Notes under the pieces: generated by a model
The model's input: only the letters and a program-made list of their open reading frames with translations
Database searches by the model: none
What the model was told of the DNA's origin: nothing
Virus record (IMG/VR): IMGVR_UViG_3300021399_000003
Location: 1-64,000 of that record
Length of the DNA: 64,000 bases
Reading direction: 5' to 3' (one strand)
From: a virus
Lineage: Duplodnaviria > Caudoviricetes
In this document: positions 5,285 through 57,828 of the stretch, piece by piece
Layout of the letters: the number at the start of each line of letters is the position of its first letter
Numbering within the stretch: the first letter of the stretch is position 1
Made by a program: the position numbers and the translations under genes

Positions 5285-5307
5285 GGTGAAAAAGGAGAGT
5301 GAGATAG

Positions 5308-8300
5308 ATGGCTGAAATTACTGTTGATGTTGGTGTAAGACTGAATGTTATACAAGGCACAATTGATGATTTGAAAAAACAATTGGCTAATATAGAAATA
5401 GGAAGTCCTAAGCATAATCAATTAAGTAAAACTATTCAACAATTAGAAAGAGAATGGGAAAAATTACAAATATTAACTTCTAAAGGTTTTACATCTGAAC
5501 AACAATTTAATCAAGCTGGAAAATCAATTGAAAAAATGGAAGGTTCAATTGCTAAAGTCCAGATGATAATGAATAATATTAAATTTTCTGATTTAAAATT
5601 GAATCCAGCGCAACAAAAAGAATTTGAACAAGTTGAACAACGTATAGTAGAAGCTGACACGGCCTTTACTCAATTTCAAGAAAAAATAAAGCAAGGCTTA
5701 TTAGACAAAGCAGGCAGTAAGGGTTTAGAGTTATTAGGAACAGAAAATTTAAAGAAGCCGTTTGAAGAGTTGGATCGTGTTATTGATAATACTGTCACCA
5801 ATAGTAATAAAAAATTAACTACATTACAAGAAAATATAGCAAAAATTGAAGGACAAATAACTAAAAGTCGAGATGTACATACGAAGCAAGCCGCAGGATT
5901 AACCCCTCAAACTTATAAAGATTTGGGTTTAGAGCAATATTTAACAACTTATAAAGACGGTTTACGCTATAAACCAGGGGTTAAAAATAATAATAGTGAC
6001 TTATTAAACACTTTAGCAGATAATTTAGGATTGTCGCAATCTAAACGTTTAGAATGGCTTGATCAATTAAAAAATGCTAGTGTAAAAGATATTCAAGAAG
6101 CAGTTAAAAGTATTTCAGAAACTGATTTTTTAAAAGGATTACAATCAAAAACTGCTGATAGTTTAACATCTCAAAAAACTGGATTAGAAACAGAATATAA
6201 TCAATTGATAGAAAAAGTACAACAATTACAACAATTACAAACTCAATTTAAAGATACTCAAGGTGATAATGGCCAACTTTCTGGCGCAATGGAAAAATAT
6301 AATGCCGTATTAACTGAATGCGAACAAATTTTGACTCGAATGCGTGGACAAGCTGTTAGCGGCTTTCAAAAAGACATGCATAAAAGTACTAACGCTTTAA
6401 CTAATGATTTAGATAATTTTAATAAACAATTAGGAGAAGCAAGTGCACAATTTTTAAAGTTACAAAATCAAAAACAAACTTTTAATTCAATGCGAATGGC
6501 GGTTACTAATTTTATGGGATTTAATCAAGTATTAAATCTTACAAAACGCGCGGTTCGTGATGCTATGAATCATATTAAACAATTAGATACTACAATGAAT
6601 GGTATATCTATTGTTACAGATATGACTACTAGCGATTTATGGAAGCAAGTAGATGTATATAGTGCTATGGCACAAAAATATGGCACTACAATTCAAGGAG
6701 CATATGATGTTTCTAAAATTTATTATCAGCAAGGTCTAGAAACAAAAGATGTTATGACTTTAACTGAAGAAACATTAAAGTTATCTAAAGTTTCTGGATT
6801 AGATTATGCCACAACTACAGACTATATGACTACAGCTTTGCGTGGCTTTAAAATGGAAATGTCTGATGCTTCAACTATAGTTGACGTATATTCTAATTTA
6901 GCTGCTAATACTGCCGTTTCACAGGAAGAATTGGCTGTTGCTATGAGTAAAACTGCTTCTTCTATGGAATCAGTTGGTTCTACTTTTGAAGAGAGCTCTG
7001 CTATGATTGCTACAATGGTAGCGGTTACTCGTGAATCTGCGACCAATATAGGTTCAGCTATGAAATCTATTGCTTCTCGTTATGGTGAATTAACTAAAGA
7101 TCCTCAGAAATTATTAGATTCTGAAGGAGAGGCAATGAGTTTCAACAAAGTTGATGCTGCGTTGAAATCTGTTGGCATTTCAATGCAAACAACCGATCAT
7201 CAATTCCGTGAATTTACTGATGTTATTGTTGAATTATCAGAAAAATGGGATACTTTAGATAGCACACAGCAACGTTATATTGCTACTCAATTTGCTGGTA
7301 ACAGACAACAATCTCGTTTCTTAGCATTAGTTTCTAATGGTGATTTATTAAAAGAAAATATGGAAACTGCTGCTAATAGTGAAGATGTTGGCACTTTGCA
7401 AAGTTTAAAAGCAATGGATTCAATTGAATCTAAAATGAACCAAGTGCAAGTCGCTGCTCAACAGTTTTATACTACTTTGGGTGCAGAAGGAGTATGGAAA
7501 AGCGCATTAGATGGAATTAGAAATTATGTTGATGGACTAAATAATTTACCAAAATTATTTGATAAAATTCCTATTGGTGCTATTGCTATGGTTGGTAGCA
7601 TGCTTACTCTTGTAAAATCAGCTTTATATAAGGGTATAGAAGGGGTAGCCAAAATATGGCAAAGTGTTATTTCACCTCCTGATCAGGTTTCAACTCAACA
7701 AGCTTCAGGCACACAAGCAGGAGAAAGTTGGGGACAAGGATATATAAATGCGTTAAAATCTATTGCACCCGCAATAAAAGCGGCAAAAGATCATATTGCA
7801 AATTCTTTTAAAGATGAAAAATCTAAAGAACAAAATATACAGGCTAATCAGGAACAAAAACCAAGTGAACCATCTTCGACTACCACTTTAACTGAAAATA
7901 ATGCAGCTATAGAATCAAGTAGTGCTCAAGAAACTTTAGCCATGGAACAGCAAGTTTCACAAGAAAGAATACGTAATGCTGCCGCTACAAGAGAAGAGGT
8001 AGTGGCTAATGAAAGGCAAATGCAAAGTGAATTACAACAGGTTATAGCAGAAGCGAAACAAAATAAATTAGAGCAAGAAAATGCTTCAAGAACTGCATTA
8101 AATCAAGCAGCTCAAGAACAGATTACTGATTTACAATCTCTTATTGATTCTGGAACAGCCTCTCCTATAACGATAACGGGAGCAGAGCAGGGGATAGCTG
8201 ATCTTCGAGCGGAAATAGAAAGTCGTCCTATATTAGCTACAATAGAATTAAATGCTGAAGAAGAAGCAGGAGCTGCATTACAATATTTACAATCAAAATT

Positions 8301-11300
8301 TGATCAAGTTAAGGCGGATATTTCTGTAAATGCTGATACTTCTGAAGCTACTGCTAAAATAATGGCAATAGATACTCTATTAGGTAATTTAGATGATATA
8401 GTAGCGCATCCAGAAGTAGCGGACGACGCAATATTAGATTTGGGTATAAAAATATCAGACATTTTAAGACAGATACGAGAAGTAAATGAGAATCCAATAA
8501 CGCCTGTTGTAGAATCATCAGATGAATCACAGGGAGGTTCAGAAGAGCAAGAGGAATCAGGCGATTCAAGTACTTCAATACCAGAAATAGCTGATGAAGT
8601 AATTGGTAAAATTCAAGAAGAAACACAAGCTCATATCGAAGGTGCGGCTGCGGCTGAACAATATGCAAATGAAGAGGACCAATCTGCACAAAGTAGTGTT
8701 AATGCAGGAGAAGGAGCTCAGGTCTCTGCGGCTGGAACTCAAGCAGAAACACAAGAACACGTCGAAGCAGCTGGTGCCGCAAGAGAACACGCAGCTGCGG
8801 ATGAACAGGTTGCACAAAGTGCGACTGCAGCAGGAGAGGCAGCAGCACAAGCTAGGCAAAATGCTTCTAATTTAGGCAGTATTTCTATGGCTTTAAATAT
8901 GATAGCTGGTTTGCTTGATAAATCTTCTGCAGGCGGTCGTATTTTTGCTGGAGTTCTAATGACAATTGCTGGAGTAATGAAGCTTGTACAAGCTTATAAT
9001 TTAGCAATAGCTAATTCTTCTCCTTGGATGGCAGTAGGAACTGCAATTGTAGGAATTATTAGTGGTATTTCTACAATGATAGAAGATGCAGAAGAAAAAA
9101 CAGAACGTTTAACTAAAGCGGCTGAAGAAGCTAACAATAAAGCAAAAGAGAAAAATGCTGATTATAAATTATTAGATAGATCGATAAGTAAATTACAAGA
9201 ATTAGAAAAAGCTCGCTATGACAGTGCAGAAGCGGCTGAAGAATATCAAACTGCTGTTGATGAATTGGCTAGTAAATATCCTCAATTAATTACTGGGTTA
9301 GACGCGGCTGGTAATGCTACTATTGAAGCTGCTAATTTAGACTATGAATTGGAAAAAGCTAGAAGAGCCGCGGCAGAAGCTACTTTAGAAGCTGCAAAGG
9401 CTGAAAGAGAAAAGGCTGAGAATGAATTGGAAAACGCCAAAACGGACGTAAATGATAAAAAAAATGAAATATTAGGTGAAGATGGCAGAGTTTCATCAAG
9501 GTATTATAGTGCAAATTTAACTGATATCTCTACTGGAAAAATAAGTTTTGATAAAAATGTATTAGGCATTCAAAAAGGCTGGTTTGGAAGAGAAAGTAGT
9601 AATTTAGAGGCATTGGGATTAAAAAGTGATCAAGAATATAGTACTCAAGAAATATTAGATATGTTATATAGACATAATGATACTCTAAAAGGTTTTATGT
9701 CGTTGAGTAATAATGGTCTATATGAAATATTGGATGAAGGCGGTTTTAGTAGAGAAATACAAGAGCTTACCGGGGCAGATCAATCATCTGTAGAAAATTT
9801 TTTAAATATGATAAAAAGCAATCCACTTAGTAAAGAAAATAAATTTAATGTTGATGATATACAGAAAATTTCTTCAGAAATTGCCGAATTAAACCCTGCA
9901 AGTGAGAATTTTAATCAAACAGTAAAAGAATTATCAACAAAAATTAGTAATGCTGGAATGCAGAGCATATTTTCTGATTTTATGGACTATGCTAGTGAAT
10001 TAGCAATTGGATTAGAAAAAGTAGAAAATTTTAAAGGTGTTTTAAAGGCCACTGAAAAAACAGTGCTTTCTGCCGCAGTTAATAATATGGGAAAAGAACA
10101 ACAAGAATTTGTAGAAAGTCTTGGTGACGCTTCTGGATTATTAACTGCTTATATTTATCAATTAGCAGAAGGTAAAGATAATATAGAAGATTATATAAAA
10201 ACACAACTTGAGGGTGATTATCAAGCATTTCAAGAGGCTTATAAAACCATTTCTGCTAGTAATGTAAAGACTGAACAATTCCAAGACATGTGGAAAAATC
10301 GTCAAAATTATACAGCAGAAGATTTTTATAGTGAATTTGGAATTAATAGTGAAGGAGATCCATTAGGTATATTAGCTTATTATGAGCAAAATATGATGGA
10401 TGTAAAAACATTGAAAAAAAGGTTAGAAGAAAAATTGGATGTTAATCCATTTGATTCTTCTATACCAATGGAACAATTTAGTGCACAATTTGATTTATCT
10501 AAATTAATAAAAAATCAAAATATACAATTATCTCCTGCTTTAGCTAGTTTTGTAACAGACGCTATTAATCAAGCTCAAGAGTATTTTGAAGAAGGATTTG
10601 TTGATAAAGGAACAGAAGTTTTAAATGCTACAGGACAAGTTATTAGTGCTATAAACCAAGAAGGGGTAGATACTAGTGCTATTAATGCGTTAATTAAACA
10701 ATATGGAATTTCTAATATAAGTTCAATTTCTAATATCATTGAAAATTTACCAGACGGAACACCGCCAGAGGTTCAAACTGCTTTTCAACAATTGCAAAAT
10801 GCTCTTTTATATAATTTACCTCTAGCGATTCAAGCTTATACAGAAGATTTGGTTTCTAATGTTGAAGATTATGAAAGTAAGATAAAAAAGACAAGTTCTG
10901 GTATGACAGTTAATGAAGCCATGCAAGCTTTAGAATTAATAAATTCAAATATAGAAGGAGATACTAAGCCTTCTCATTTAACTGAATTTAAAAGTAAGAA
11001 TGGCAAGTTAATTATGGATGCTGATTTACGGCAAAAGTATACAGATGCCGTACTTCATGGATTAGAAAATGATTATCAAGAAATTGAAAATAAAATTAAT
11101 GAATTTATTGGAACAAATGGCCAGGAAACGGAACAAAGTAAATTATTAAAAGAATTAAAATATACTACAGAACCTCTTTCTATTGATGATGCTGATATAA
11201 CAAATCTTTTATCTGATTTACATATTATTGATAAGAATGCGGATGGCGAGTGGCATTATGTCGAAGACATGGTTGATTCTACTACTGATATTTTTGCCCT

Positions 11301-14300
11301 TGTTTCAGATTTATTAAATCAACAAAGTACTAATGCTAAAGAACTTCATGAGTATGCTAAAAAACAAATTCCAGCCGAAGCGGCTTTAGAAGCGGGAGAT
11401 ATACAAGGATATTTTCAGTCTTTACTAGATACTACAGAAAGCATAGATTTAAATAAAATTGCTACTGGAGATTTTTCAGAAATTAATGAATTAACTTATG
11501 AGCAAGCAAAAGCTGGTAAAGATAAAATTAATGAAGTATATAGTCAATTTATTTCAGATGTATTTTCTAAAGGATTAGAAAATATTAATTTACAAGATTA
11601 TAGTGGAATTTATGAACAAGCGGATGCTGAATTAAAAACTGCTATTGAAGCCGCGATCTCTACTGGCAATTATCAAGAGATTGTAAGACTAACTGCCGAT
11701 TTAGCTGGCAAAACTGTTCAAGAAACTAATGAACTAGTAATACAAGCAATTCAAGCTTCTGATTCCTATAAAAAGCAAATTGAAGCTTCAGATGTCATAA
11801 AAGACATTAATTTTTTAACTTCTAATATTGCTTATGCTTCTTTAGAAACTATTCAATCATTAGCAGATTCTTTAAATATATCTGAAGAAGATTTTAATAC
11901 TTTATTTGATATTGATTCATATGACGCAGCATTAGGTGGATTTAAACTTAATATGGACACTTTGGCTGCGAATGGACTTAATGAGATTGTTAATAAAACA
12001 AATATAGTAGCTGATAGTGTTAAGGCTTTTTTAGATTCGCTTGCTGAAGGTATAGGACAAGGATTAGAAGGAAAGTTAGATTTCGCTGGAAGAGATAATT
12101 TAATTTCTAATTTAAGTAAATTTGGTATTGAATTAAATGAAACTGATTTTACTCGTACTGCAGATGGATTGAAGTTAAGTCAACAAAGAGCTATTGAATT
12201 ATATAATACTTTAAAACAAATTGATAGTATTAGTGCAAAGACTACTTTTGATGCTTTGGCTAAATCATTAGAAAGTACGAATGAAAATTATACAAATATT
12301 TCTACTATAGCAAAACGTATTGCTGATTTACAGAATTTAATTAATAATCCAGATGTAAGCGATGCGCGACGTCAAGAGTATGAAGCGGAATTGGCTGTAG
12401 CTGAAGAAATATATCGTGTTCGTTCTTCTACTGATAATAAAGATTTTGATTTTATGAGCCGTAGTTTACCTAATGGCATGCAAAATCCAATTGATTATTG
12501 GGATGCTACTGGTAAAGCTTATAAGAGTATGAATCAGGCCGCAAAATCTGGCTATATGGAGATAGCTGATTTTTATAATATTGTTAATGAAATGAATAAT
12601 ATGGCGGCGGCCAGCGGCCAAGTATTATCTTTTATGGGACAAACTTTAAGTGGAAAAGCGGAAGATGCGGCTGCGTTAATTGAACAGGCTATGAGCACAC
12701 TAACTAACATTGATGGAGAGGGTGCTAAAATAGCTTTAGGAAAATTAGGTGTTGATTTTTCTACTGGCGCAGCTGACATGTCAGGTAATTTTGATAGTGG
12801 TGTTAAAGCCATGGCAAAATCTCAAATTAAAATGCTTGATGCTGCGATCAATATGCTTGAAGCTATTGTTGCTATGGAAGAACTTGATGTAGCTGGCGAT
12901 GGACTAGATATAGGAGATATTTTTAGTGGAACATTTGATAGTAATGGATTACCGGAATTTACAGAAAAAGCTGAACAGTGGTTTGATGATGTTGAAAATC
13001 TTTATGGCGGTATTAGAATAGGAGAACAATCTTTAAAAGAAGCTATACAAGAATTAGGAAAAGAAGATCCTCAAAAAGCAGTTGATATGTTAAAAAATAT
13101 TATGAGTATTGATTGGACTTTGGGGGATATGGATGTTATTGGACAAATTCAAAATGTAGTTTCTGCCTTTTTCCCTGGAAAAATTGTGACACAAGGACAA
13201 AGTGTATTTGATATTTTAAGAGTGCCTAAGGATTTAGATCCAGAAAAAGATGCTGAGAAGATTAGTAAGTGGGCAAAAAATATGAAAATTTCTACAGAAG
13301 ATGCCATGACACTTATTAGTCAGATTAAAAAAGGATCTTTAGAAGCACAAAAAGGTACGTCATTATATGAAAGTGTTGAAAAATTATTAGGATTAACTGG
13401 AAAGGGAAATAAAGAAAAGCGAAATTTGTTTGAAGGATTTGCTGGAGGTACTATTACTGACACCACAATAGAACAATGGGAAAACATTGGTTTTAAATAT
13501 GATGAAAAGGGAAAAATTGAAAGTGGTATATATCACGGTACTGATGGTGGCTCTATTACTTTAAGTAAAGATTCTCCTGAAAGTTGGGGAAAACAAATAG
13601 AACAGTATGAAACTGCTTTAGCTAAGGCCAGAGAATTAGGAGGTTCAGTTGTTAAAGCGGTTGAAGGTAGTAATAATTCTGAATTTACATTTAATACTTC
13701 TTTAGGAGCTAAAACTATTGTAACAGTAGTTGACAATAAGGGAGAAGTTACATATCAGTTTCCTAATGGATTTTCTTGTACTGCTAGTACTCCGGCTGAA
13801 GCGGCGGGAAAATATGTTCAATATTTACGTGACAATACTGAAGGATATTTAGGAGTTAAATATCAATCAATGTCTGATGAAGAAATATTAATTGAACAGG
13901 GATATCTACTTAAGCAAAGTACAGAAGTAACATTTGATACATCTGATCCAAAGAATAATCCTGCAGAAAAAATAAAAGAAGCTAGTGATAAGGAATTACA
14001 AGAAGCTTTAGATGGAGCGAAAAGTACTTATAATAAAAAAACACAACAATATGATTGGGATATTACGTTAGGTGGCGAAAATATTCAGTTTTCAACAAAT
14101 GGTAAAGAAATTGATGCTGATACTTTAAGACAAAAAGCATTAGAAAGCTTAGGCATTGATAATAAATTAGTTGAGAGTATTGCGACTGGTATTAAAGATG
14201 CTTTTGCACAAGCTAATTTAGGAGAAGCTATAGGGACTGCGTTCTCTGAAGCTTTTACTGGTGAAGGTATAAATACGCCATTAGATTTAGTTATGAAATT

Positions 14301-17300
14301 AAATGACAATGGTACATATACCATAGAAGGTGGTCGTGCAACTGGTACAGGAACAGATGTTAATAGTGCTCTTACTAATTGGTGGTCAAATTATAAGTCT
14401 GTTCAAGGAATTGGAGAAGAAACTTCAGTTCCATTACCAGCTATTACTCTAAAAGCTCAAACAGAAGGCGGTACAGCATTATGCACTATTAATATGAGCA
14501 ACGATGGTATGCAATGTGTACTTGCTGGAAATGGTAGTGGAACAGGAAGTGGAGAAGCTGCTGATTTAACTTCACAAATACAAGATTGGGTTAATACTGA
14601 GTTTGGAAAAGTAAGTTATGAAACAACTTATACTACTGAAGAAGCTTTAAAAAATATTACTGCTACTGCTAATGGAACTGCCAATTTCTCTGTTGTTATT
14701 ACTCAGCCAGATGGTCAAGGTAAAAGTCACGTTATAGTGGATGGCAAAGATATAGGGGCAGGTAAAGCACCGGGCGATATACTTCAAACTTATTTTAATA
14801 CACAATTACTCTTAATGAAGGGAAAAATTGAAAATGAATATAAAGAAGAAGCACCTGCAATAACGGCCACAATAACTATAGGAGATCAAACTTATAGTAT
14901 AGTTGTAAATGGAGACAATACTTGGACAATTACAGGAATGGGAGAAGATGCGCCAGGAATAGAAAACCCTTCTGATTGGATAAATAGCGAAGTTCAAAAG
15001 AAAGTAGATAATGATACTAGTGGTATTTTATTTGAACTTCCTACTGAAAAAGGTCGAGCTATTACTCGTACTTTTTCTATTGGAGGTTTAAATTTTGCTG
15101 TTACTATTACTAGTTTAGGTAATGGTAATTGGTTAGTAGACTTTCCCGATCGAAAGGGTGTACCTTCCACGAATCCTGCCGGTACTATAGAGGATTATGT
15201 AAACGAAAAATTAAATCCTCAAGTAGCTGCGATAAATGCTTTAGGTAGTGATGAGCCACAAGCATCAGTAGATACAATAACTGAATTTGTTGAAATTAAT
15301 GGTATGGTTTTTGCTATTACAATTAAAGATAATGGTGATGGTACTTATATAGTCAATATTCCTGGTTTAGGAGAATATGCTACTTCAAAGCCTACAGAAA
15401 CAATACAGTTATGGAAAGAAAATAAATTAAAACAAATAGAAATGCAAACAATAATGGCCTTAAAAAACAAAGGCGAATTTGTTCCTGGCACTACAATTCC
15501 TATAACTGTTGACGGAATAACTTATAATTTAACAATTGGTGAAGATTCTTATACTGTTAATGGTCAAGAATATGGTAGTTTAGCAGAAGCTCTTCGTGCT
15601 ATTGCTACTGGTACCGCTCCTACAGGTGCAGAAGGGGATATAGAACTCCCAGAACAGCATGTTGTTCAAGATGTTGAAGAAGAATATAATATTGATGATG
15701 GCGGAGGACCAGAGTTTCCAGAAATAGAAGACCCGCCAGAAAAAAAAGTAACTCAACAAATAACTGTAGATACAGAACGTGTTAAAGATACTGAAGATTG
15801 GTTTTCAGGAGATAGATCTTGGGGGCTATCTCGGCAAGAGCAGCGCAAAATGAACAGGCTTAATAACCCTCTAGGATTAGATACAACATTTAGACCTGGA
15901 AGATCTCTTCAACGCCAAGGAGATCCTAATAAACAAATTGAAATACCTGCTGAATTAGAAAAAGCTTATACTAATTTGGCTTCTGCTTATGGAGACTATG
16001 TAGGTGGATTAACTGTAGGTGGATTAACTACTGATGGAAAGCCTACATTTGATAATTTTGATACTTCTGCTGCTACTGAATTTAATGCACAGTTAGATCA
16101 AGCCGTGAATAGTGGTTTAAAATTAGAAGAAATTTTCCAAAGTTTGGGTATGCCTGAGCAATTAATAGAATTATTAGACAAAATAAAAAATGAGCCAACT
16201 AATTTAGAGGTTAATGAAACTACACAACTCGATTCAGAAGGACAGGTTTTAATAGATGGTACCGCTACTGGGGAAATGACTGTTAAGATTAATACAGAAA
16301 CTCCGGAGAATGGAGGAACAGGACTTGATTTAGACAGTAATTTAGGATTTATATATGAAAATAATAATGATTTAGTAAATGTTCAAGATAATATTAATAA
16401 ATATTTAGAGAAATCAGCTAATCCTGAATTAGCGGCAACAAATTTAAATAATGCACTACAAAACGCATTAATGGAGGGAGGCCCAGAAGCTGCTAAGGGA
16501 CTAATTGATGGCTTAGGATTGGGATTACAAGAAAATGGTGAAGCAACTAATGCGGCAACTACTTTTGGAGAAGATGTGATAGATTCCATTGATAGTGCTC
16601 TTGGAGTGGCATCTCCTTCAACTAAAACAATGGAAGCCGGTCAATACTTAGTTCAAGGACTCGCACAAGGTATTCAACAAGATTCTGCCGCAATCTCTGC
16701 TGCGCAAACATTAGCACAACGAGTTATAACCACTATTCAAAATGCTTTTGCTAATAGTCCTTTAGGAAAAATTTTTCAATTGTTAGGATTAAGTGGCACC
16801 CCGGGAGAATCTTTAACGTTACCAGGCTATACGCCAATACCAAATCCTGGACAGCAAAAAGACGAAGGCCCTAGCACTATTCAAGTAAATGGTGCTACAA
16901 TAGAAGCCGAAGGTTCTGATATAAACGCTGAAGGATCGAAACTGGATACTGGAAAACAAAAACCTCCTGAGAAGAAATCAGATTCAGGTAATGCAGGAAC
17001 TTCTACAGAGAAAAATTCTGAAGGAACAGTACAGACTGTACAAGTACAGCAAGTTGCTGCACAGCCTACAGCCGCGCCTAAGCCTGCTGCGCCAGAAACT
17101 CCTACTATTGATACTTCTGCTATTGCTAATGCTATTTCTGCTGTTCAATCAGCTATAGATGGATTGGATGCTTCTAATGCACAAACTGCCGCAACTAAAT
17201 TTAATACTGCTATGAAGAATACTATGAATAGTGTTCCTAGTAGTAAAACAGTTAATATTAAAATTAATACTCCTGAAAAAATTAATGTTACTGCTAGTGT

Positions 17301-20300
17301 TAATGTAAATGTTAGTGTTAGTGGTGGAACGCAAAGCGGTCCTCCTGGCGTAACAGGTAAAGGAGCTCCTAATACGCCAGCAAAAATTTTATCAGTTTCT
17401 GCTAGCTCCAAAACAAAAGGCAACGTCGCTCTAGCTAAAGGCCGTGAAACCCTTATGGGTGAATTAGGTCGCGAATTAGTAGTTTCTGGTGGTAAATACT
17501 ATACTGTAGGTGATAATGGCGCAGAATTTGTTGATTTACCAGATGATGCCATTGTATTTAATCATAAACAAACTAAACGCTTATTAGGCACAAAACGTGC
17601 TACTGGTGGAAGTCGAGGAAAGCCTGTAAAATCGGAAGCCGCTGCGCTTTCTTTTGCTGCTGGTAACGTTTCTGGACCTGCATTTGCTAGTGCTAGTGCT
17701 GCTTTAGCTCAATTAAAAGCTATTCGTGCCATGTGGCAAAGAATGCTTGACGCATCAGCCAAAGAACTAGGTTCACAAGCCGGCCGCGGAGGCGGCGGTG
17801 GCGGAGGCGGTGGTGGTGGCGGTGGAGACGAAGAAGGACCACCAACAACAACAACCGCCGATATTCAACGTTGGTATAACTGGTTACGTCAGATTGATCA
17901 TATTGAAATGCATATTGCTGAACAGGAAAAATTGCAGACTAAATATGAAAATGATAGAATTGCTAATGGCGAAAAAATATATGAGTCTCAAAAGCGTCAA
18001 TATGAATTATTAGGTGAAGAACTAAAGCGTAATGAAAAATTAGTTGAATTGCAAAAGAGTTGGTATGATAATAAGCGAGCAGAGTTAGCCGCATCTTCTT
18101 ATGGTAAGATTTTTACTTATAATGAAGATGGACTGCAGCAGTACGTTGGTGATGATAGACCGGGTTCTGGCGTTGGTCTTGATATTCTTGAAAATCTTAC
18201 TCGTCGTGATGTAAATGGTAAAGCTATTGGTAATGCCGCAACAGCAGAAAAACAATTAAAATATTTGCAATCTGTTGGCTTTAATTTAAATGATTTATTA
18301 TATAATGACGATGGCACAATGATTGCTAAGTCTTTTAATGTTAATGCAAAGAAAAATAAAAAGTTTACTAGTAAAACTGATAAAAAGGCTACAGACAATG
18401 ATTTAATGACTCAAATGATGGAGAATTTCTGGAATAATGTTGATTCTTGGCGTGATGAGCTTGATAGTTTGTATGATAGTTATCATGAACAATATGAAAA
18501 AATGATTGAAAATCAAAATAAACAAAATGAAATTCTTCAATCACTCATAGATAATGAATTAGATGTAGAGCAAGCATTAGTAGAAGCTATTGAATCTCGT
18601 GAACAAGCGGTTATAGATAAGTTACAGGAACAGAAAGATGCCCTCCAAAATTCTAATGAGAAATTTATAAAAGGCTTAACCGATAGTTTAAATAAAGAAA
18701 AAGAAACTCGTGATAAACAAAATAAAGATACTGAACTTACTAAGTTACAACGTCAATTAGCTATTTTACAACGTTCTGGTGGTTCTGCTTCTCAAATTAA
18801 ATCTTTGCAAGATCAAATTTCTACTAAGCAACAAGATGCATATTATGATGCTAGACAGCAAGAAATTGATGCTATTCAAGAAGCTTCTGATAAACAATTA
18901 GAAAAACTTGATACTCAAATTCAAATCCTTTCTGATACATTAGATTATCAAAAAGCAAATGGATTATTGTGGAATGAAGTCCGAGATATAATGGCTACAA
19001 ATACTCCAGAACAGGCTGCACAAAAAATATTACAATGGAATACTGAATATTTAGCTAAATCTGCATTAGATATAGAACAATCTTTAAAAGATATTCAAGA
19101 AAAATTTGGTATTTGGGCAAGTGAACGTGATGATGAAAATAATCCTTTAAAGAATGTAGAAGATTATACTCGTTCTCAAGCCATTCAAGAAATTGAAGGA
19201 CATGTGCAAGGTTTTTCTGGATTATCTGAGACTTCTCGTGGAAAACTAAGAAGCGGTGCCGAAAAAGCGGCAAAAAAAGCATATAAAGAAAAAATTGATG
19301 CTGGAGGTTCTGAATCAGAAGCTGAACAGGCTTATAGAGAAGCTTATCAAGGATATATAAATACGAATGTACAGCAATATAAAAATGTTGATACTCATGG
19401 GGCGGCTGCAGAACAAATTTGGGATAATATAGTAGCAAATGCTAAAAATGATCCAAAATCATTTGTAAATAAAGCTTATTATGGTGATTATGAAGATGAG
19501 TTAAAAGATAACTTTATTAAACAGCTTACTAATAATAAGAATATTACTTTTAATGAAGATGGCACTATTAGTGGAGACATTGCGACCGCTGCAGAAAATG
19601 CATTAAATACAGCTGGTAATGAATTAGAAAAAGAATATAATTTACAAGATAGCAAAACTGAATTATATAATCTTCCTCTGCCAAATGGTGCAACTGCTTA
19701 TACCTTTGGTGGGACTGGAAAAATTGGTAAAACCAAGTTTACTAAATTAAAAGAGAATAGTTATATTGAGGGTGGAAAAATAGTAGGATTTACTGGCGAG
19801 ACCACAGAGAAAACTATTAGTACAACCAATACTAGTAAAGGAAAAGCTAAAAAGCTATCATTCTTAGAAGCTAAATTGGAAGATGGAACGAAAGTTTATT
19901 TTAAATCTTCTTCTTTACCTGGAATATTAGATTCAATAAACGAGTCAAAAGAAGCAAGGGCAATTAATAAAAATATACAGAGCACAGAATCTAACATTAA
20001 GAAATTGGAATCACGTTCTTTTAAAATGCAAAAAATGACTCCATATTCATTTGATGATGGTAAAACTTCTTATACAATTAAAGAGGGGACTGAAGTTGGT
20101 ATTACTCATATTAATTTTTCTAAGAAAAAGAATGCAATTAATGGAGTAGATTCTGTTACTATTAGTTCAATTGATGGTAAAACTTTAAGTAAAGAAGTTA
20201 CTTTATCTGGTAATAAATTAAGTAAGACTAATAACGTTGCTTTATTAAAAGCGTTTGCTACGCCCAAAAAGACAGGAAAGGGTAAAAAGAAAAAAACGAT

Positions 20301-20697
20301 TTGGAATCCTATACCGGAGTTAAAAGCTTATTATAAAACTGGTGGCATGGCTGATTTCACTGGTCCTGCATGGTTAGATGGTACTTCAACGAAACCAGAA
20401 GCCGTTCTTAATGCCGCACAAACTGATTTCTTACGCAATGACTTATTGGGTAATTCTCGCACTTCATTAGTTTCAATTGTTTCTGCACTACAAACTGCAA
20501 TAGAAAACACAGCCTCTGGTAGTATTGGTAATACTAATACTACTGATGACAGCGTTATAATTGAGAATGTAGCTGTTACATTTGAAGCCGGTACAATTGC
20601 AAGTGATTATGACGCACGTCGCGCGGGCGCCTTATTCAAGGAAGAGCTTGTAAAAATCGCGCGAAAAGCTGGAAACAATAGCGTTTCAAGGAGGTAA
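5308..20697 (+). CDS. tape measure protein (5129 aa)
   Basis: TP901-type TMP core near aa 410-740 (IGSAMKSIASR, YIATQFAGNRQQSRFLALV); later TMP motifs LGVASPS, LMGELGRELVV and GGMADFTGPAWLDGT...PEAVLNAAQT; long coiled coils. Confidence 0.9.
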   Translation: MAEITVDVGVRLNVIQGTIDDLKKQLANIEIGSPKHNQLSKTIQQLEREWEKLQILTSKGFTSEQQFNQAGKSIEKMEGSIAKVQMIMNNIKFSDLKLNPAQQKEFEQVEQRIVEADTAFTQFQEKIKQGLLDKAGSKGLELLGTENLKKPFEELDRVIDNTVTNSNKKLTTLQENIAKIEGQITKSRDVHTKQAAGLTPQTYKDLGLEQYLTTYKDGLRYKPGVKNNNSDLLNTLADNLGLSQSKRLEWLDQLKNASVKDIQEAVKSISETDFLKGLQSKTADSLTSQKTGLETEYNQLIEKVQQLQQLQTQFKDTQGDNGQLSGAMEKYNAVLTECEQILTRMRGQAVSGFQKDMHKSTNALTNDLDNFNKQLGEASAQFLKLQNQKQTFNSMRMAVTNFMGFNQVLNLTKRAVRDAMNHIKQLDTTMNGISIVTDMTTSDLWKQVDVYSAMAQKYGTTIQGAYDVSKIYYQQGLETKDVMTLTEETLKLSKVSGLDYATTTDYMTTALRGFKMEMSDASTIVDVYSNLAANTAVSQEELAVAMSKTASSMESVGSTFEESSAMIATMVAVTRESATNIGSAMKSIASRYGELTKDPQKLLDSEGEAMSFNKVDAALKSVGISMQTTDHQFREFTDVIVELSEKWDTLDSTQQRYIATQFAGNRQQSRFLALVSNGDLLKENMETAANSEDVGTLQSLKAMDSIESKMNQVQVAAQQFYTTLGAEGVWKSALDGIRNYVDGLNNLPKLFDKIPIGAIAMVGSMLTLVKSALYKGIEGVAKIWQSVISPPDQVSTQQASGTQAGESWGQGYINALKSIAPAIKAAKDHIANSFKDEKSKEQNIQANQEQKPSEPSSTTTLTENNAAIESSSAQETLAMEQQVSQERIRNAAATREEVVANERQMQSELQQVIAEAKQNKLEQENASRTALNQAAQEQITDLQSLIDSGTASPITITGAEQGIADLRAEIESRPILATIELNAEEEAGAALQYLQSKFDQVKADISVNADTSEATAKIMAIDTLLGNLDDIVAHPEVADDAILDLGIKISDILRQIREVNENPITPVVESSDESQGGSEEQEESGDSSTSIPEIADEVIGKIQEETQAHIEGAAAAEQYANEEDQSAQSSVNAGEGAQVSAAGTQAETQEHVEAAGAAREHAAADEQVAQSATAAGEAAAQARQNASNLGSISMALNMIAGLLDKSSAGGRIFAGVLMTIAGVMKLVQAYNLAIANSSPWMAVGTAIVGIISGISTMIEDAEEKTERLTKAAEEANNKAKEKNADYKLLDRSISKLQELEKARYDSAEAAEEYQTAVDELASKYPQLITGLDAAGNATIEAANLDYELEKARRAAAEATLEAAKAEREKAENELENAKTDVNDKKNEILGEDGRVSSRYYSANLTDISTGKISFDKNVLGIQKGWFGRESSNLEALGLKSDQEYSTQEILDMLYRHNDTLKGFMSLSNNGLYEILDEGGFSREIQELTGADQSSVENFLNMIKSNPLSKENKFNVDDIQKISSEIAELNPASENFNQTVKELSTKISNAGMQSIFSDFMDYASELAIGLEKVENFKGVLKATEKTVLSAAVNNMGKEQQEFVESLGDASGLLTAYIYQLAEGKDNIEDYIKTQLEGDYQAFQEAYKTISASNVKTEQFQDMWKNRQNYTAEDFYSEFGINSEGDPLGILAYYEQNMMDVKTLKKRLEEKLDVNPFDSSIPMEQFSAQFDLSKLIKNQNIQLSPALASFVTDAINQAQEYFEEGFVDKGTEVLNATGQVISAINQEGVDTSAINALIKQYGISNISSISNIIENLPDGTPPEVQTAFQQLQNALLYNLPLAIQAYTEDLVSNVEDYESKIKKTSSGMTVNEAMQALELINSNIEGDTKPSHLTEFKSKNGKLIMDADLRQKYTDAVLHGLENDYQEIENKINEFIGTNGQETEQSKLLKELKYTTEPLSIDDADITNLLSDLHIIDKNADGEWHYVEDMVDSTTDIFALVSDLLNQQSTNAKELHEYAKKQIPAEAALEAGDIQGYFQSLLDTTESIDLNKIATGDFSEINELTYEQAKAGKDKINEVYSQFISDVFSKGLENINLQDYSGIYEQADAELKTAIEAAISTGNYQEIVRLTADLAGKTVQETNELVIQAIQASDSYKKQIEASDVIKDINFLTSNIAYASLETIQSLADSLNISEEDFNTLFDIDSYDAALGGFKLNMDTLAANGLNEIVNKTNIVADSVKAFLDSLAEGIGQGLEGKLDFAGRDNLISNLSKFGIELNETDFTRTADGLKLSQQRAIELYNTLKQIDSISAKTTFDALAKSLESTNENYTNISTIAKRIADLQNLINNPDVSDARRQEYEAELAVAEEIYRVRSSTDNKDFDFMSRSLPNGMQNPIDYWDATGKAYKSMNQAAKSGYMEIADFYNIVNEMNNMAAASGQVLSFMGQTLSGKAEDAAALIEQAMSTLTNIDGEGAKIALGKLGVDFSTGAADMSGNFDSGVKAMAKSQIKMLDAAINMLEAIVAMEELDVAGDGLDIGDIFSGTFDSNGLPEFTEKAEQWFDDVENLYGGIRIGEQSLKEAIQELGKEDPQKAVDMLKNIMSIDWTLGDMDVIGQIQNVVSAFFPGKIVTQGQSVFDILRVPKDLDPEKDAEKISKWAKNMKISTEDAMTLISQIKKGSLEAQKGTSLYESVEKLLGLTGKGNKEKRNLFEGFAGGTITDTTIEQWENIGFKYDEKGKIESGIYHGTDGGSITLSKDSPESWGKQIEQYETALAKARELGGSVVKAVEGSNNSEFTFNTSLGAKTIVTVVDNKGEVTYQFPNGFSCTASTPAEAAGKYVQYLRDNTEGYLGVKYQSMSDEEILIEQGYLLKQSTEVTFDTSDPKNNPAEKIKEASDKELQEALDGAKSTYNKKTQQYDWDITLGGENIQFSTNGKEIDADTLRQKALESLGIDNKLVESIATGIKDAFAQANLGEAIGTAFSEAFTGEGINTPLDLVMKLNDNGTYTIEGGRATGTGTDVNSALTNWWSNYKSVQGIGEETSVPLPAITLKAQTEGGTALCTINMSNDGMQCVLAGNGSGTGSGEAADLTSQIQDWVNTEFGKVSYETTYTTEEALKNITATANGTANFSVVITQPDGQGKSHVIVDGKDIGAGKAPGDILQTYFNTQLLLMKGKIENEYKEEAPAITATITIGDQTYSIVVNGDNTWTITGMGEDAPGIENPSDWINSEVQKKVDNDTSGILFELPTEKGRAITRTFSIGGLNFAVTITSLGNGNWLVDFPDRKGVPSTNPAGTIEDYVNEKLNPQVAAINALGSDEPQASVDTITEFVEINGMVFAITIKDNGDGTYIVNIPGLGEYATSKPTETIQLWKENKLKQIEMQTIMALKNKGEFVPGTTIPITVDGITYNLTIGEDSYTVNGQEYGSLAEALRAIATGTAPTGAEGDIELPEQHVVQDVEEEYNIDDGGGPEFPEIEDPPEKKVTQQITVDTERVKDTEDWFSGDRSWGLSRQEQRKMNRLNNPLGLDTTFRPGRSLQRQGDPNKQIEIPAELEKAYTNLASAYGDYVGGLTVGGLTTDGKPTFDNFDTSAATEFNAQLDQAVNSGLKLEEIFQSLGMPEQLIELLDKIKNEPTNLEVNETTQLDSEGQVLIDGTATGEMTVKINTETPENGGTGLDLDSNLGFIYENNNDLVNVQDNINKYLEKSANPELAATNLNNALQNALMEGGPEAAKGLIDGLGLGLQENGEATNAATTFGEDVIDSIDSALGVASPSTKTMEAGQYLVQGLAQGIQQDSAAISAAQTLAQRVITTIQNAFANSPLGKIFQLLGLSGTPGESLTLPGYTPIPNPGQQKDEGPSTIQVNGATIEAEGSDINAEGSKLDTGKQKPPEKKSDSGNAGTSTEKNSEGTVQTVQVQQVAAQPTAAPKPAAPETPTIDTSAIANAISAVQSAIDGLDASNAQTAATKFNTAMKNTMNSVPSSKTVNIKINTPEKINVTASVNVNVSVSGGTQSGPPGVTGKGAPNTPAKILSVSASSKTKGNVALAKGRETLMGELGRELVVSGGKYYTVGDNGAEFVDLPDDAIVFNHKQTKRLLGTKRATGGSRGKPVKSEAAALSFAAGNVSGPAFASASAALAQLKAIRAMWQRMLDASAKELGSQAGRGGGGGGGGGGGGGDEEGPPTTTTADIQRWYNWLRQIDHIEMHIAEQEKLQTKYENDRIANGEKIYESQKRQYELLGEELKRNEKLVELQKSWYDNKRAELAASSYGKIFTYNEDGLQQYVGDDRPGSGVGLDILENLTRRDVNGKAIGNAATAEKQLKYLQSVGFNLNDLLYNDDGTMIAKSFNVNAKKNKKFTSKTDKKATDNDLMTQMMENFWNNVDSWRDELDSLYDSYHEQYEKMIENQNKQNEILQSLIDNELDVEQALVEAIESREQAVIDKLQEQKDALQNSNEKFIKGLTDSLNKEKETRDKQNKDTELTKLQRQLAILQRSGGSASQIKSLQDQISTKQQDAYYDARQQEIDAIQEASDKQLEKLDTQIQILSDTLDYQKANGLLWNEVRDIMATNTPEQAAQKILQWNTEYLAKSALDIEQSLKDIQEKFGIWASERDDENNPLKNVEDYTRSQAIQEIEGHVQGFSGLSETSRGKLRSGAEKAAKKAYKEKIDAGGSESEAEQAYREAYQGYINTNVQQYKNVDTHGAAAEQIWDNIVANAKNDPKSFVNKAYYGDYEDELKDNFIKQLTNNKNITFNEDGTISGDIATAAENALNTAGNELEKEYNLQDSKTELYNLPLPNGATAYTFGGTGKIGKTKFTKLKENSYIEGGKIVGFTGETTEKTISTTNTSKGKAKKLSFLEAKLEDGTKVYFKSSSLPGILDSINESKEARAINKNIQSTESNIKKLESRSFKMQKMTPYSFDDGKTSYTIKEGTEVGITHINFSKKKNAINGVDSVTISSIDGKTLSKEVTLSGNKLSKTNNVALLKAFATPKKTGKGKKKKTIWNPIPELKAYYKTGGMADFTGPAWLDGTSTKPEAVLNAAQTDFLRNDLLGNSRTSLVSIVSALQTAIENTASGSIGNTNTTDDSVIIENVAVTFEAGTIASDYDARRAGALFKEELVKIARKAGNNSVSRR

Positions 20698-56580: not shown

Positions 56581-56717
56581 GATTTACGCTCCATAATTTG
56601 TCTAATTTTTCGTAATTCTCTTTCAATACCATTTAATGAATAAAGAGAAATCCAAGGTAAAATAATACCTAATCCAATTATTGTAATTAGAATAATAATA
56701 ACTATTTCTTCAATCAT
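56577..56717 (-). CDS. small single-pass membrane protein (46 aa, not in ORF track)
   Basis: MIEEIVIIILITIIGLGIILPWISLYSL...; ATGA overlaps at both ends. Confidence 0.55.
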   Translation of the reverse strand: MIEEIVIIILITIIGLGIILPWISLYSLNGIERELRKIRQIMERKS

Positions 56718-57435
56718 GCTATCTCCCATCTACCATCAGGCATAATTTCAAGTATATCTTGGTAAAGTATATTAAATTTTTGGTCATCATATGAACGGTC
56801 AACATGATAATGAGCCATATACCACTTATTAAAAGTAGTAGTCATTCTTACAAACTTTTCGAGAAAGTTTGTAATATCATCATGCGCGTTTTCATAAGGA
56901 AAAAGTTTATCTACAATATAATTTGGGCCACAATGAGTAATTATATTATTAATTTGGAAGTTATGTGCGCGAAGATTGTTTGCGGCATAATCCATTTCAT
57001 TCCAAGTAGGTATCTCTTGCGGCCACCAAGATTTACCTTCCTTACGATAAGCTTTATCTACAGAAGTGGCACCACCCATACAGAAAAAAGTTTGATTATT
57101 AATAGTGAAAATTTCACCATTTTCTATATACATTACATGCGGTCGCACTCTACGAACTTTCGCACCATGCCACTCGGTAATTGGAATCACGCGAAGAAGG
57201 TCATAATTCTCATGATTGCCAAGAACAGAAATTACTGTATAAGGTCTATCTTCAAGCCAATCACACCAATATTTAACTTCGTTTGAACTATCCCAAGTTA
57301 ATCCAGCGTCACCGCAAATGATAACTGTATCTTCTTTATCAAGTTCACGTGAATTGGGCCAATTTTTAAAATTTAGCTTTTTTATATCTATATTAAGGTG
57401 AATATCACCTAACCAGTCACGAAAATTCGTGACAC
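56714..57435 (-). CDS. calcineurin-like metallophosphoesterase, frame interrupted after codon 8 (recoded or pseudogene)
   Basis: SD AAGGAG, GTG start at 57435, MSRIFVTG then TAG; other frame continues DIH...CGDAG...LGNHENY...ITHCGP...AHYH; removing 5 nt gives an intact 238-aa enzyme. Confidence 0.8.
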
Positions 57436-57436
57436 A

Positions 57437-57646
57437 TTAATCATCTCCTTTTTTATCCCATTTTTCACAATGATTAAATTTATTTTCAATCATCCCATAA
57501 CAAACTAAAAATGGACAATTATCTAAATAATAATCGCGCGATTCCATACGATAATAACATCCGTAGCAATTACCATTACAATCCAATGCTTCTTTATCAA
57601 ATTTTTGTAGAAGATTTAGAAGTTGTAGTATTTCGGTCTGTGTCAC
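57437..57646 (-). CDS. small Cys-rich hypothetical protein
   Basis: 69 aa; CNGNCYGC...CPF. Confidence 0.55.
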   Translation of the reverse strand: MTQTEILQLLNLLQKFDKEALDCNGNCYGCYYRMESRDYYLDNCPFLVCYGMIENKFNHCEKWDKKGDD

Positions 57647-57648
57647 TA

Positions 57649-57828
57649 TTAATCTTCCTTTCTTTGATTATAAATGTCATCTCCGCCATAATAACGCGAT
57701 TCCGCGCAACCTTCATTAGCAAAATTAAAAGAGCATCCATAAAAATTAATTATAGTGCCAGTAGTTTCAAACTGTTCCTCAATTATTTTTTTAATTTCTT
57801 CTTCTATATTCATAATATTTTCTGCCAT
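57649..57828 (-). CDS. small hypothetical protein (59 aa, not in ORF track)
   Basis: MAENIMNIEEEIKKIIEETVETTGTIINFYGCSF...; SD GGAGG. Confidence 0.5.
   Translation of the reverse strand: MAENIMNIEEEIKKIIEEQFETTGTIINFYGCSFNFANEGCAESRYYGGDDIYNQRKED

Follow-up and report, generated by a model that had tools for sequence, protein, structure and literature searches.

The initial annotation of the viral record IMGVR_UViG_3300021399_000003 (Duplodnaviria; Caudoviricetes) pointed to a metallophosphoesterase (MPE) gene that is broken by a stop codon close to its start, and suggested that ribosomes might hop across the break. We analysed this gene in the first 64 kb (64,000 nucleotides, here called the window) of what is a complete phage genome of 169,459 bp, with terminal repeats and a G+C content of 35.7%. 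The minus strand reads GTG TCA CGA ATT TTC GTG ACT GGT TAG, and frame 0 encodes VSRIFVTG*, the TAG stop lying right after codon 8. The body of the MPE is displaced by 5 nt from this leader frame, and a second frame, counted from the GGT at 57409-57407, runs for 231 codons up to its stop, with none earlier. The two GGT codons are displaced from each other by 5 nt, with 2 nt between them. The features of the locus are the following:

57440..57450, minus strand: extended Shine-Dalgarno (SD) sequence AAGGAGATGAT, 4 nt ahead of the start codon
57435-57433, minus strand: start codon GTG
57409..57435, minus strand: leader open reading frame (ORF), the nine codons quoted above, corresponding to the first beta-strand in intact relatives
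57416..57433, minus strand: 5′ hairpin GUCACGA-AUUU-UCGUGAC, from the last base of the start codon to 1 nt before the take-off codon
57412..57414, minus strand: candidate take-off codon GGT (Gly 8)
57409..57411, minus strand: TAG stop, which would occupy the A site during take-off and whose G is the first base of the landing codon
57407..57409, minus strand: proposed landing codon GGT, after which decoding would restart at GAT (57406-57404), followed by ATT CAC
57407..57411, minus strand: insert of 5 nt (TAGGT or an equivalent placement), missing in the eight nearest relatives (alignment A1)
56714..57406, minus strand: MPE body in the shifted frame, 230 codons plus stop, with DIH ... GDAG ... 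GNHE ... GHYH-type motifs
57396..57410, minus strand: local 3′ hairpin AGGUGA-UAU-UCACCU, folding z -2.7
57437..57646, minus strand: Cys-rich ORF of 69 aa of no known family, which fills the slot of an endonuclease gene in other carriers

The shifted-frame product (P0001) matches the Pfam family PF00149 Metallophos (32.4 bits for a cut-off of 21.5, E 1.6e-7) and PHROG 1649 'metallo-phosphoesterase' (E 1.7e-27), and its body is 93% identical to an intact protein (P0002). Calcineurin-like MPEs bind metals through D-x-H, G-D and G-N-H-[ED] motifs and later His motifs; GDIH, CGDAG, GNHE, ITHCG and AHYH are all found in the product, and residues D2, H4, D34, N65, H66, H159, H200 and H202 are invariant in alignment A4. 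What the window gene lacks is the one continuous start-to-stop frame expected of a PF00149 gene. The intact relatives begin with MNRIF[IV]TGD[IL]H, so joining the two frames at both GGT codons restores the usual N-terminus of the family. The eight leader codons are hence the predicted true N-terminus of the enzyme, set 5 nt apart from the remainder. The initial observation, a GGT TAG followed by an intact MPE that is 5 nt out of frame from the second GGT, is thus confirmed by the sequence and by the PF00149 match.

The Insert in Independent Assemblies

A Logan contig from run X1, the probable source sample, covers 57242-57700 with 0 differences, and a contig from run X5, which belongs to a different study, covers 57381-57535 gap-free with a single substitution. 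The window's exact allele (1 difference) was therefore seen again in another study ten years later. The support at the site comes from contigs and not from raw reads, and contigs may hide rare variants. The insert is real DNA and no assembly artefact: when assembled independently, the run that is probably the source yields the same sequence, as does the different-study run, and the insert is present in 24 other contigs. Nothing was found in favour of an assembly or sequencing error, raised as an alternative in the initial annotation, and its probability is negligible.

Run X1 also contains a coexisting relative (depth 6 versus 25), which has neither the 5 nt nor the 69-aa ORF; it reads MNRIFITGDLHL, with the joint at 57394/57649 (record 5). 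The contig of an RNA-labelled run stops at 57457, short of the site. In a contig of run X3 (record 8, on 57126-57452), a relative keeps the region of the 69-aa ORF and the 3′ part of the MPE, and 1,387 other letters replace the 325 bases that hold the leader and the 5′ part of the MPE. An extra gene may sit at the site in this copy.

The Interruption Recurs in Three Forms

Counting the window, an interruption at this motif is found in 25 contigs. Class A (GGT-TA-GGT-GAY, 5 nt) comprises the window, L010/L014 and L031; class B (GGT-TAG-C-GAY, 4 nt) is the majority form; class C (ACC-TA-ACT-CAT, 5 nt) lies two codons later and is represented by a single locus, L129. The L010/L014 loci were found in viral contigs by a degenerate site pattern and share the leader, the hairpin, GGT TAG GT and D-I-H with the window, at an MPE identity of 43%. 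All the wobble positions were free in the pattern used to scan metagenomes, and nine of the ten matches were MPE genes carrying the interruption; the take-off GGT was invariant in the pattern matches although GGN was permitted. Scans that started from the neighbouring endonuclease or from the MPE family brought in more loci.

The stop is directly 3′ of the take-off codon everywhere, as TAG in all the class A and B loci and as TAA in L129. Matched take-off and landing codons occur as GGT/GGT in three lineages and as ACC/ACT in L129, and are absent in class B. Where they occur, the stop ends in G or in A (TAG or TAA) according to the first base of the landing codon. The matched-codon design arose twice, as GGT-TA-GGT and as ACC-TA-ACT.

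Prophage contigs and contigs of metagenome-assembled genomes, whose relatives are distant (≤45% identity), gave 78 evaluable loci, all intact, and two that were not evaluable. A pattern limited to the hairpin found no intact MPE bearing this hairpin in viral contigs, and its extra matches (L024, L027) were unrelated sequence. Broader hop patterns yielded chance matches, which were discarded (L009, L011-L013, L015, L018, L019 and L037).

The database proteins P0040 and P0068 each carry two extra residues, in frame, at one of the two hop positions (GDT-QT-HGS and TG-QS-D, respectively). P0040 shares 84% identity with the product of L129. Both proteins may represent resolved forms of the insert that are in frame, or else sites at which hopping keeps the frame. 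Truncated N-termini were seen in gene calls of 140-215 aa (P0049, P0050, P0064-P0066, P0069, P0090, P0095 and P0102), which correspond to interrupted loci (P0049 to L031, P0090 and P0095 to L022, P0102 to L129). Automatic annotation thus systematically mis-calls the interrupted MPE genes by truncating or splitting them. In L010 (1476-2162), an ATG just past the SD sequence opens the body frame and gives an ORF of 228 aa beginning MHYVTNFRDRLGDIH; this gene would look intact to gene callers, with an odd N-terminus.

Selection on the Interrupted Genes

The shifted frame is open over 216-266 codons in all 14 loci that reach the end of the gene, five other loci running off contig ends before it. 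D-x-H follows the insert directly in every class A and B locus. The ratio of non-synonymous to synonymous substitution rates (dN/dS) was 0.06-0.38 between the pairs of interrupted alleles for which dS could be estimated, which left aside two saturated pairs and one near-identical pair. In class B, a TGA inside the leader closes the body frame, so the frame change must fall in the last two leader codons. Taken on these sequence comparisons, the interruption is a conserved, selected feature and not a recent lesion.

A Leader Hairpin Accompanies the Insert

The 5′ hairpin of the window has a 7-bp stem and the loop AUUU, with a folding energy of -9.8 kcal/mol. Energies range from -7.7 to -9.8 kcal/mol over 12 distinct interrupted leaders and from 0 to -2.6 kcal/mol over 36 distinct intact ones (Mann-Whitney p 2e-8, a value that overstates independence, the sequences being related). 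In the alignment over the 12 distinct leaders, 84 of 84 pair cells are paired in the 8-codon leaders. All four single leader changes keep the pairing as G.U, and L046 has two compensatory pairs, whose amino acids change as well (Arg to His, Phe to Tyr). L042, L044, L068 and L129 have non-homologous leaders, yet each builds a stem of its own, and the three 9-codon leaders each fold in their own register. Every stem opens within the start codon and closes 0-1 nt short of the take-off codon; L129 has both its take-off site and its 3′ stem end two codons further on. The 5′ hairpin is hence, on these predicted folds, a conserved part of the signal, and the first of the two hairpins proposed in the initial annotation is borne out.

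The second hairpin did not fare as well. Its folding z is -2.7 in the window; the two further class A lineages give -0.1 and -0.3, and the predictions for 13 class B leaders contain no consistent 3′ hairpin. A stem-loop starting at the take-off or stop codon, as in gene 60 bypassing, is predicted in the window alone and is not conserved in 15 other leaders. It is probably specific to the window, as a by-product of the G-D-I-H codons.

The predicted energy of the SD duplex, computed against a 16S 3′-end motif, is -13.7 kcal/mol in the window, with a median of -13.7 kcal/mol over 17 interrupted leaders versus -10.75 kcal/mol over 38 intact ones; the interrupted leaders have the longer SD complementarity.

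Link to a Homing Endonuclease Gene

In L010, L029 and L034, an ORF of 249-258 aa ends 4-14 nt upstream of the leader and matches PHROGs labelled HNH or homing endonuclease (E 1e-33 to 1e-19). Of 80 MPE loci sampled across the family, 78 were evaluable, with 10 interrupted and 68 intact genes. Seven of these 10 interrupted loci have the endonuclease gene directly upstream, versus none of the 68 intact ones (Fisher p 5e-8, or 1e-4 after near-copies were collapsed, at 4/6 versus 0/36). Among 78 loci of endonuclease relatives, seven have an MPE of the family downstream, and all seven are interrupted.

A structure model of the endonuclease was built from an alignment of 16 sequences (predicted local distance difference test score, pLDDT, 86). 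Residues 136-249 of the model superimpose on 3r3p_A, the catalytic domain of I-Bth0305I (Z 9.8, root-mean-square deviation 2.5 Å, 88/97 residues), and the same domain matches Vsr (1cw0_A) with a Z of 9.6. Plain Foldseek E-values for the model were not significant, and a sequence search of solved structures and of NCBIfam gave nothing meaningful. From the model, the associated gene is predicted to have a Vsr-like catalytic fold of the I-Bth0305I type. A relative of the same endonuclease family also stands before an intact phosphoesterase-like gene of another family (MNSIFFSSDLHF..., L048:2240-2330), which is uninterrupted.

On an MPE tree obtained by a quick search, with support from the Shimodaira-Hasegawa-like approximate likelihood ratio test (SH-aLRT) only and with long branches flagged, 14 of the 73 rows are interrupted. 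The tree needs at least 10 changes of state, at least five of them forced by well-supported branches, and the window is nested in an intact clade. L010 and L172 form an occupied/empty pair with common flanking genes, where L010 has, in addition, the endonuclease gene, the insert and a new leader. Divergence is higher over the ~60 nt that follow the insert than over the rest, and a weaker similar pattern is seen in the window.

The window itself has the 69-aa ORF in the place of the endonuclease gene. This ORF is missing in the nearest relatives, matches no Pfam or PHROG family, and a search for relatives returned one weak match of 16 residues. A nucleotide search of the region against the phage collection gave no match. 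The window's genome holds two endonuclease homologues elsewhere, and the genes downstream of both start normally. The possibility raised initially, that the insert is the footprint of an element, holds in part: the insert accompanies a homing endonuclease gene in the relatives, and the window itself no longer has that gene.

A Short Forward Hop as the Likely Explanation

It is likely that the interruption belongs to a mobile, endonuclease-linked cassette, whose insert of 4-5 nt would be crossed by a short forward hop of the ribosome. The window would be an endonuclease-less copy of this cassette, which would have repeatedly invaded the 5′ end of one phage MPE family. Its first part would be a free-standing, Vsr-like homing endonuclease gene just ahead of the MPE start; its second, a replacement ribosome-binding site and a leader of 8-10 codons folding into the hairpin; its third, a stop codon and one or two more bases, placed within the codons of the invariant T-G-D-x-H motif. 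The insert would split the endonuclease's own target DNA, by analogy with the 50-nt insert of T4 gene 60. Since the insert travels with the homing endonuclease gene, target protection is indicated as its origin.

During translation, Gly-tRNA on GGU in the P site, with UAG in the A site, would cause a decoding stall. The leader hairpin would re-form behind the ribosome at the E site and help the mRNA to move forward. The peptidyl-tRNA in the window would then re-pair with the second GGU, 5 nt on, and GAU would be decoded next, giving ...IFVTGDIH.... In class B, the same stall and hairpin would lead either to landing on the near-cognate AGC, with two G-C pairs kept, or to a +1 shift that adds Ser. 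The claim of a programmed hop thus stands as far as the interruption is conserved and selected, the matched codons recur as GGT/GGT and ACC/ACT, and the stop always follows the take-off codon; it falls short in class B, where the codons are unmatched.

A number of observations weigh against this explanation. The eight nearest viral contigs, whose MPEs are 85-93% identical, are all intact, with ACT GGT GAT and without the insert. Together with the intact relative in the same sample, this means that the window copy could be a recent acquisition. The initial annotation had proposed that homologues be aligned, the lack of the 5 nt in close relatives counting against a hop; taken literally, this is what was found, and it is outweighed by the distant recurrence. 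The window has no endonuclease gene at the site, only the 69-aa ORF. Covariation in the hairpin is modest, since 11 of 500 shuffles do as well and a single lineage supplies both compensatory pairs; when one shared structure is imposed on the three 9-codon leaders there is no signal (214/500 shuffles). In the energy comparisons, for hairpin and SD alike, related sequences count as independent ones. Class B, the commoner form, has no matched landing codon, and hence a pure matched-codon hop cannot explain everything. The leader, with 8-10 residues made at take-off, is too short for a nascent-peptide signal of the gene 60 type. The L010 lineage might do without recoding, by way of the upstream ATG in the body frame. 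Finally, the phage has an amber-suppressor-like tRNA (described below), which would compete at the UAG.

Alternatives to the Hop

The same cassette and stall could also act without a hop, either by the skipping of two bases, so that the second GGU is decoded as an extra Gly (TGGDIH), or by a -1 slip (TGLGDIH). This appears unlikely, though it retains more plausibility than the other alternatives. Ser is common right before the first Asp in the MPE superfamily, and class B (GGT TAG C GAY), having no matched codon, resembles a +1 shift at a stop; both count in favour of a shift without re-pairing. The in-frame TG-QS-D of P0068 suggests in addition that extra residues before the Asp are tolerable. 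The D-x-H spacing, on the other hand, is invariant across the MPE superfamily, and a shift without re-pairing in L129 would read D-T-T-H. Hence, a true hop, with re-pairing 5 nt on, is favoured for classes A and C, because the arrangement 'codon, TA, same codon' arose with two different amino acids, because the last base of the stop co-varies with the landing codon, and because decoding of the second Thr codon in L129 would upset the D-x-H spacing. In both of the independent 5-nt designs, the take-off codon returns at a distance of exactly 5 nt, a repeat that a plain +2 shift does not call for. A -1 slip would require GGU to pair anew with UGG, a poor match. A +1 shift of the RF2 type finds little here either: GGU to GUU is a poor match, and the leader holds no SD-like run of the kind that RF2 has about 3 nt upstream, with the hairpin there instead. 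Upstream hairpins as such are known to stimulate +1 shifts: a stable hairpin refolding beside the E site did so at a stop codon on 70S ribosomes in an engineered construct (PMC6321510).

A second alternative, already named in the initial annotation, is that the interrupted gene is a decaying pseudogene, here the repair scar of endonuclease activity. It would agree with the eight intact nearest relatives, with the intact allele in the same sample and with the truncation of such genes by gene callers (e.g. P0049 and P0065). We consider it very improbable, as the interruption recurs in 25 contigs and all 14 complete loci keep the shifted frame open in spite of a divergence that leaves L010 with 43% identity to the window. 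The dN/dS of 0.06-0.38, the invariant GGT TAG, the restriction of the hairpin to the interrupted alleles and the near-identical window allele in another study ten years later all argue in the same direction.

The extra bases might also be removed or avoided before translation, through slipped-strand loss between the two GGT at the DNA level, RNA excision, or initiation in the body frame by way of read-through of the upstream TAA. The 69-aa ORF is in the same frame as the MPE body, with the TAA alone between them, and L010 has its ATG in the body frame. Yet the covering contigs hold no length variant of the window allele, though contigs hide rare variants; in class B, the leader TGA closes the body frame; and, in the window, the stretch from the TAA to the body is free of start codons. 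The leaders of the window and L010 differ by a single substitution (ACT to ACC), which is silent in frame 0 and turns W into R in the body frame. An Rfam scan of 57200-57700 returned no match at E up to 1. The chance of this explanation is slighter still than that of a pseudogene.

Comparison to Known Recoding Systems

The hop favoured here is most readily compared with the bypassing in T4 gene 60. The 50-nt insert of gene 60 is part of an endonuclease element and gives protection from its nicking (bioRxiv 2022.08.31.505936, Manning and Atkins), and the association of the cassette with a homing endonuclease goes back to Bonocora et al. 2011, as cited in PMC5009743. Like gene 60, the MPE cassette places its insert inside the codons of an invariant catalytic motif of a phage enzyme, uses a Gly take-off codon followed by UAG and a matched landing codon, is carried by a homing endonuclease element (in the MPE relatives, not in the window), and has made repeated, recent-looking invasions, with copies that keep the insert without the endonuclease.

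The differences are as marked. The insert is of 4-5 nt and not of 50 nt, the host gene encodes a metallophosphoesterase and not a topoisomerase, and the endonuclease is of a different, Vsr-like family. With the site at codon 8, a long nascent-peptide signal as in gene 60 is impossible. The MPE cassette has no conserved stem-loop 3′ of the take-off codon, and it has a 4-nt form without a matched landing codon. Its hairpin lies 0-1 nt from the take-off codon and includes the start codon, compared to 9 nt upstream for the 5′ stem-loop of T4. The MPE system would thus work like the gene 60 cassette, yet it is no member of it. Pairing of the mRNA leaving the ribosome has been proposed as a driver of gene 60 bypassing in bioRxiv 2024.12.09.627546, a proposal with which the MPE architecture agrees.

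The site also resembles the synthetic stop-hops of Weiss, Gesteland and Atkins, in which the peptidyl-tRNA gives up its codon ahead of a stop and pairs anew with a matching one a few bases downstream. As described in PMC5009743 and bioRxiv 2024.12.09.627546, these E. coli hops are low-level events in artificial constructs without stimulators, and the former, a review of 2016, states that no natural in-frame stop hops were known and that utilised bypassing is rare. Unlike them, the MPE site is natural, conserved and frame-shifting, and has a dedicated hairpin.

Shared with RF2 (prfB, CUU UGA) and with the upstream-hairpin construct are a duplex by the E site, a stop in the A site and a forward change of frame. 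In RF2, mRNA pairs with rRNA to make the duplex, and the P-site tRNA moves by 1 nt to re-pair. At the MPE site, GGU lacks a good +1 partner, and the frame changes by +4 or +5. The phage 'fractured genes' described in PMC2677866 are accompanied by endonucleases of the same Vsr-like (I-Bth0305I type) catalytic fold, free-standing in regions of DNA metabolism. Those genes are rescued by split inteins or introns, whereas the rescue proposed here is ribosomal recoding. In the literature consulted, supplementary files being outside its scope, we found no report of recoding in a phage metallophosphoesterase.

T4 gene 60 has long been the main example of natural hopping in bacteria and phages, and reports of homologous cassettes are recent; the MPE genes would offer a second, unrelated family with a much simpler set of signals. 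Their natural variants amount to a mutational series, with 4-nt versus 5-nt inserts, Gly versus Thr take-off and five unrelated leaders that keep the hairpin, and make it testable whether mRNA folding behind the ribosome can drive forward movement. By analogy with gene 60, homing endonucleases could guard an insertion site by a tiny insert, provided that the ribosome repairs the damage.

Amber-Suppressor tRNA and the Reading of TAG

Outside the window, at G000 91293-91369 (L280), there is a tRNA with the anticodon CUA, of the amber-suppressor type, with a normal 7-nt anticodon loop; the phage has 13 tRNAs. No convincing gene with an in-frame TAG was found in the window's genome, where the candidate TAG-containing ORFs have no family match and look non-coding. 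Reassignment of TAG was rejected for the window, as reading TAG as sense merely extends frame 0 to a nearby TAA. The tRNA was also rejected as a required partner of the cassette: it is present in the window's genome and in G005 and was not seen in the tRNA loci of G001-G004, the sampling of which was incomplete.

The endonuclease genes at L044:1501-2241 and L068:1501-2349 contain four and nine in-frame stops, respectively, all TAG, and the MPE bodies of the same loci have no in-frame TAG apart from the hop site. The phage of L044 has a tRNA(CUA). These two carriers appear to read TAG as sense in some genes. Other loci of the endonuclease family have in-frame stops that are only TAG or only TGA.

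More tentatively, the cassette may be a minimal, portable bypass module, in which a hairpin at the E site and a stop would suffice for an efficient hop of 4-5 nt; it would then be a second, independent endonuclease-borne family, with the suppressor tRNA acting as a timer in L044 and L068. If so, no nascent-peptide signal would be needed to move a bacterial ribosome. With such a timer, UAG would stall ribosomes before the tRNA accumulates, and the phosphoesterase would be made; later, UAG would be read through, turning the phosphoesterase off and allowing the endonuclease to be made.

In the tRNA region (L311), the stretches G000 77682-79332 and 79609-80938 each run for more than 1.3 kb without an ORF of at least 70 aa in the standard code, and reading them with TAG as sense gave no family match. 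They may hold RNA genes or introns. On the plus strand of the window, 5299-20697 is a single open frame of ~5,130 codons, a giant gene for a phage of 169 kb.

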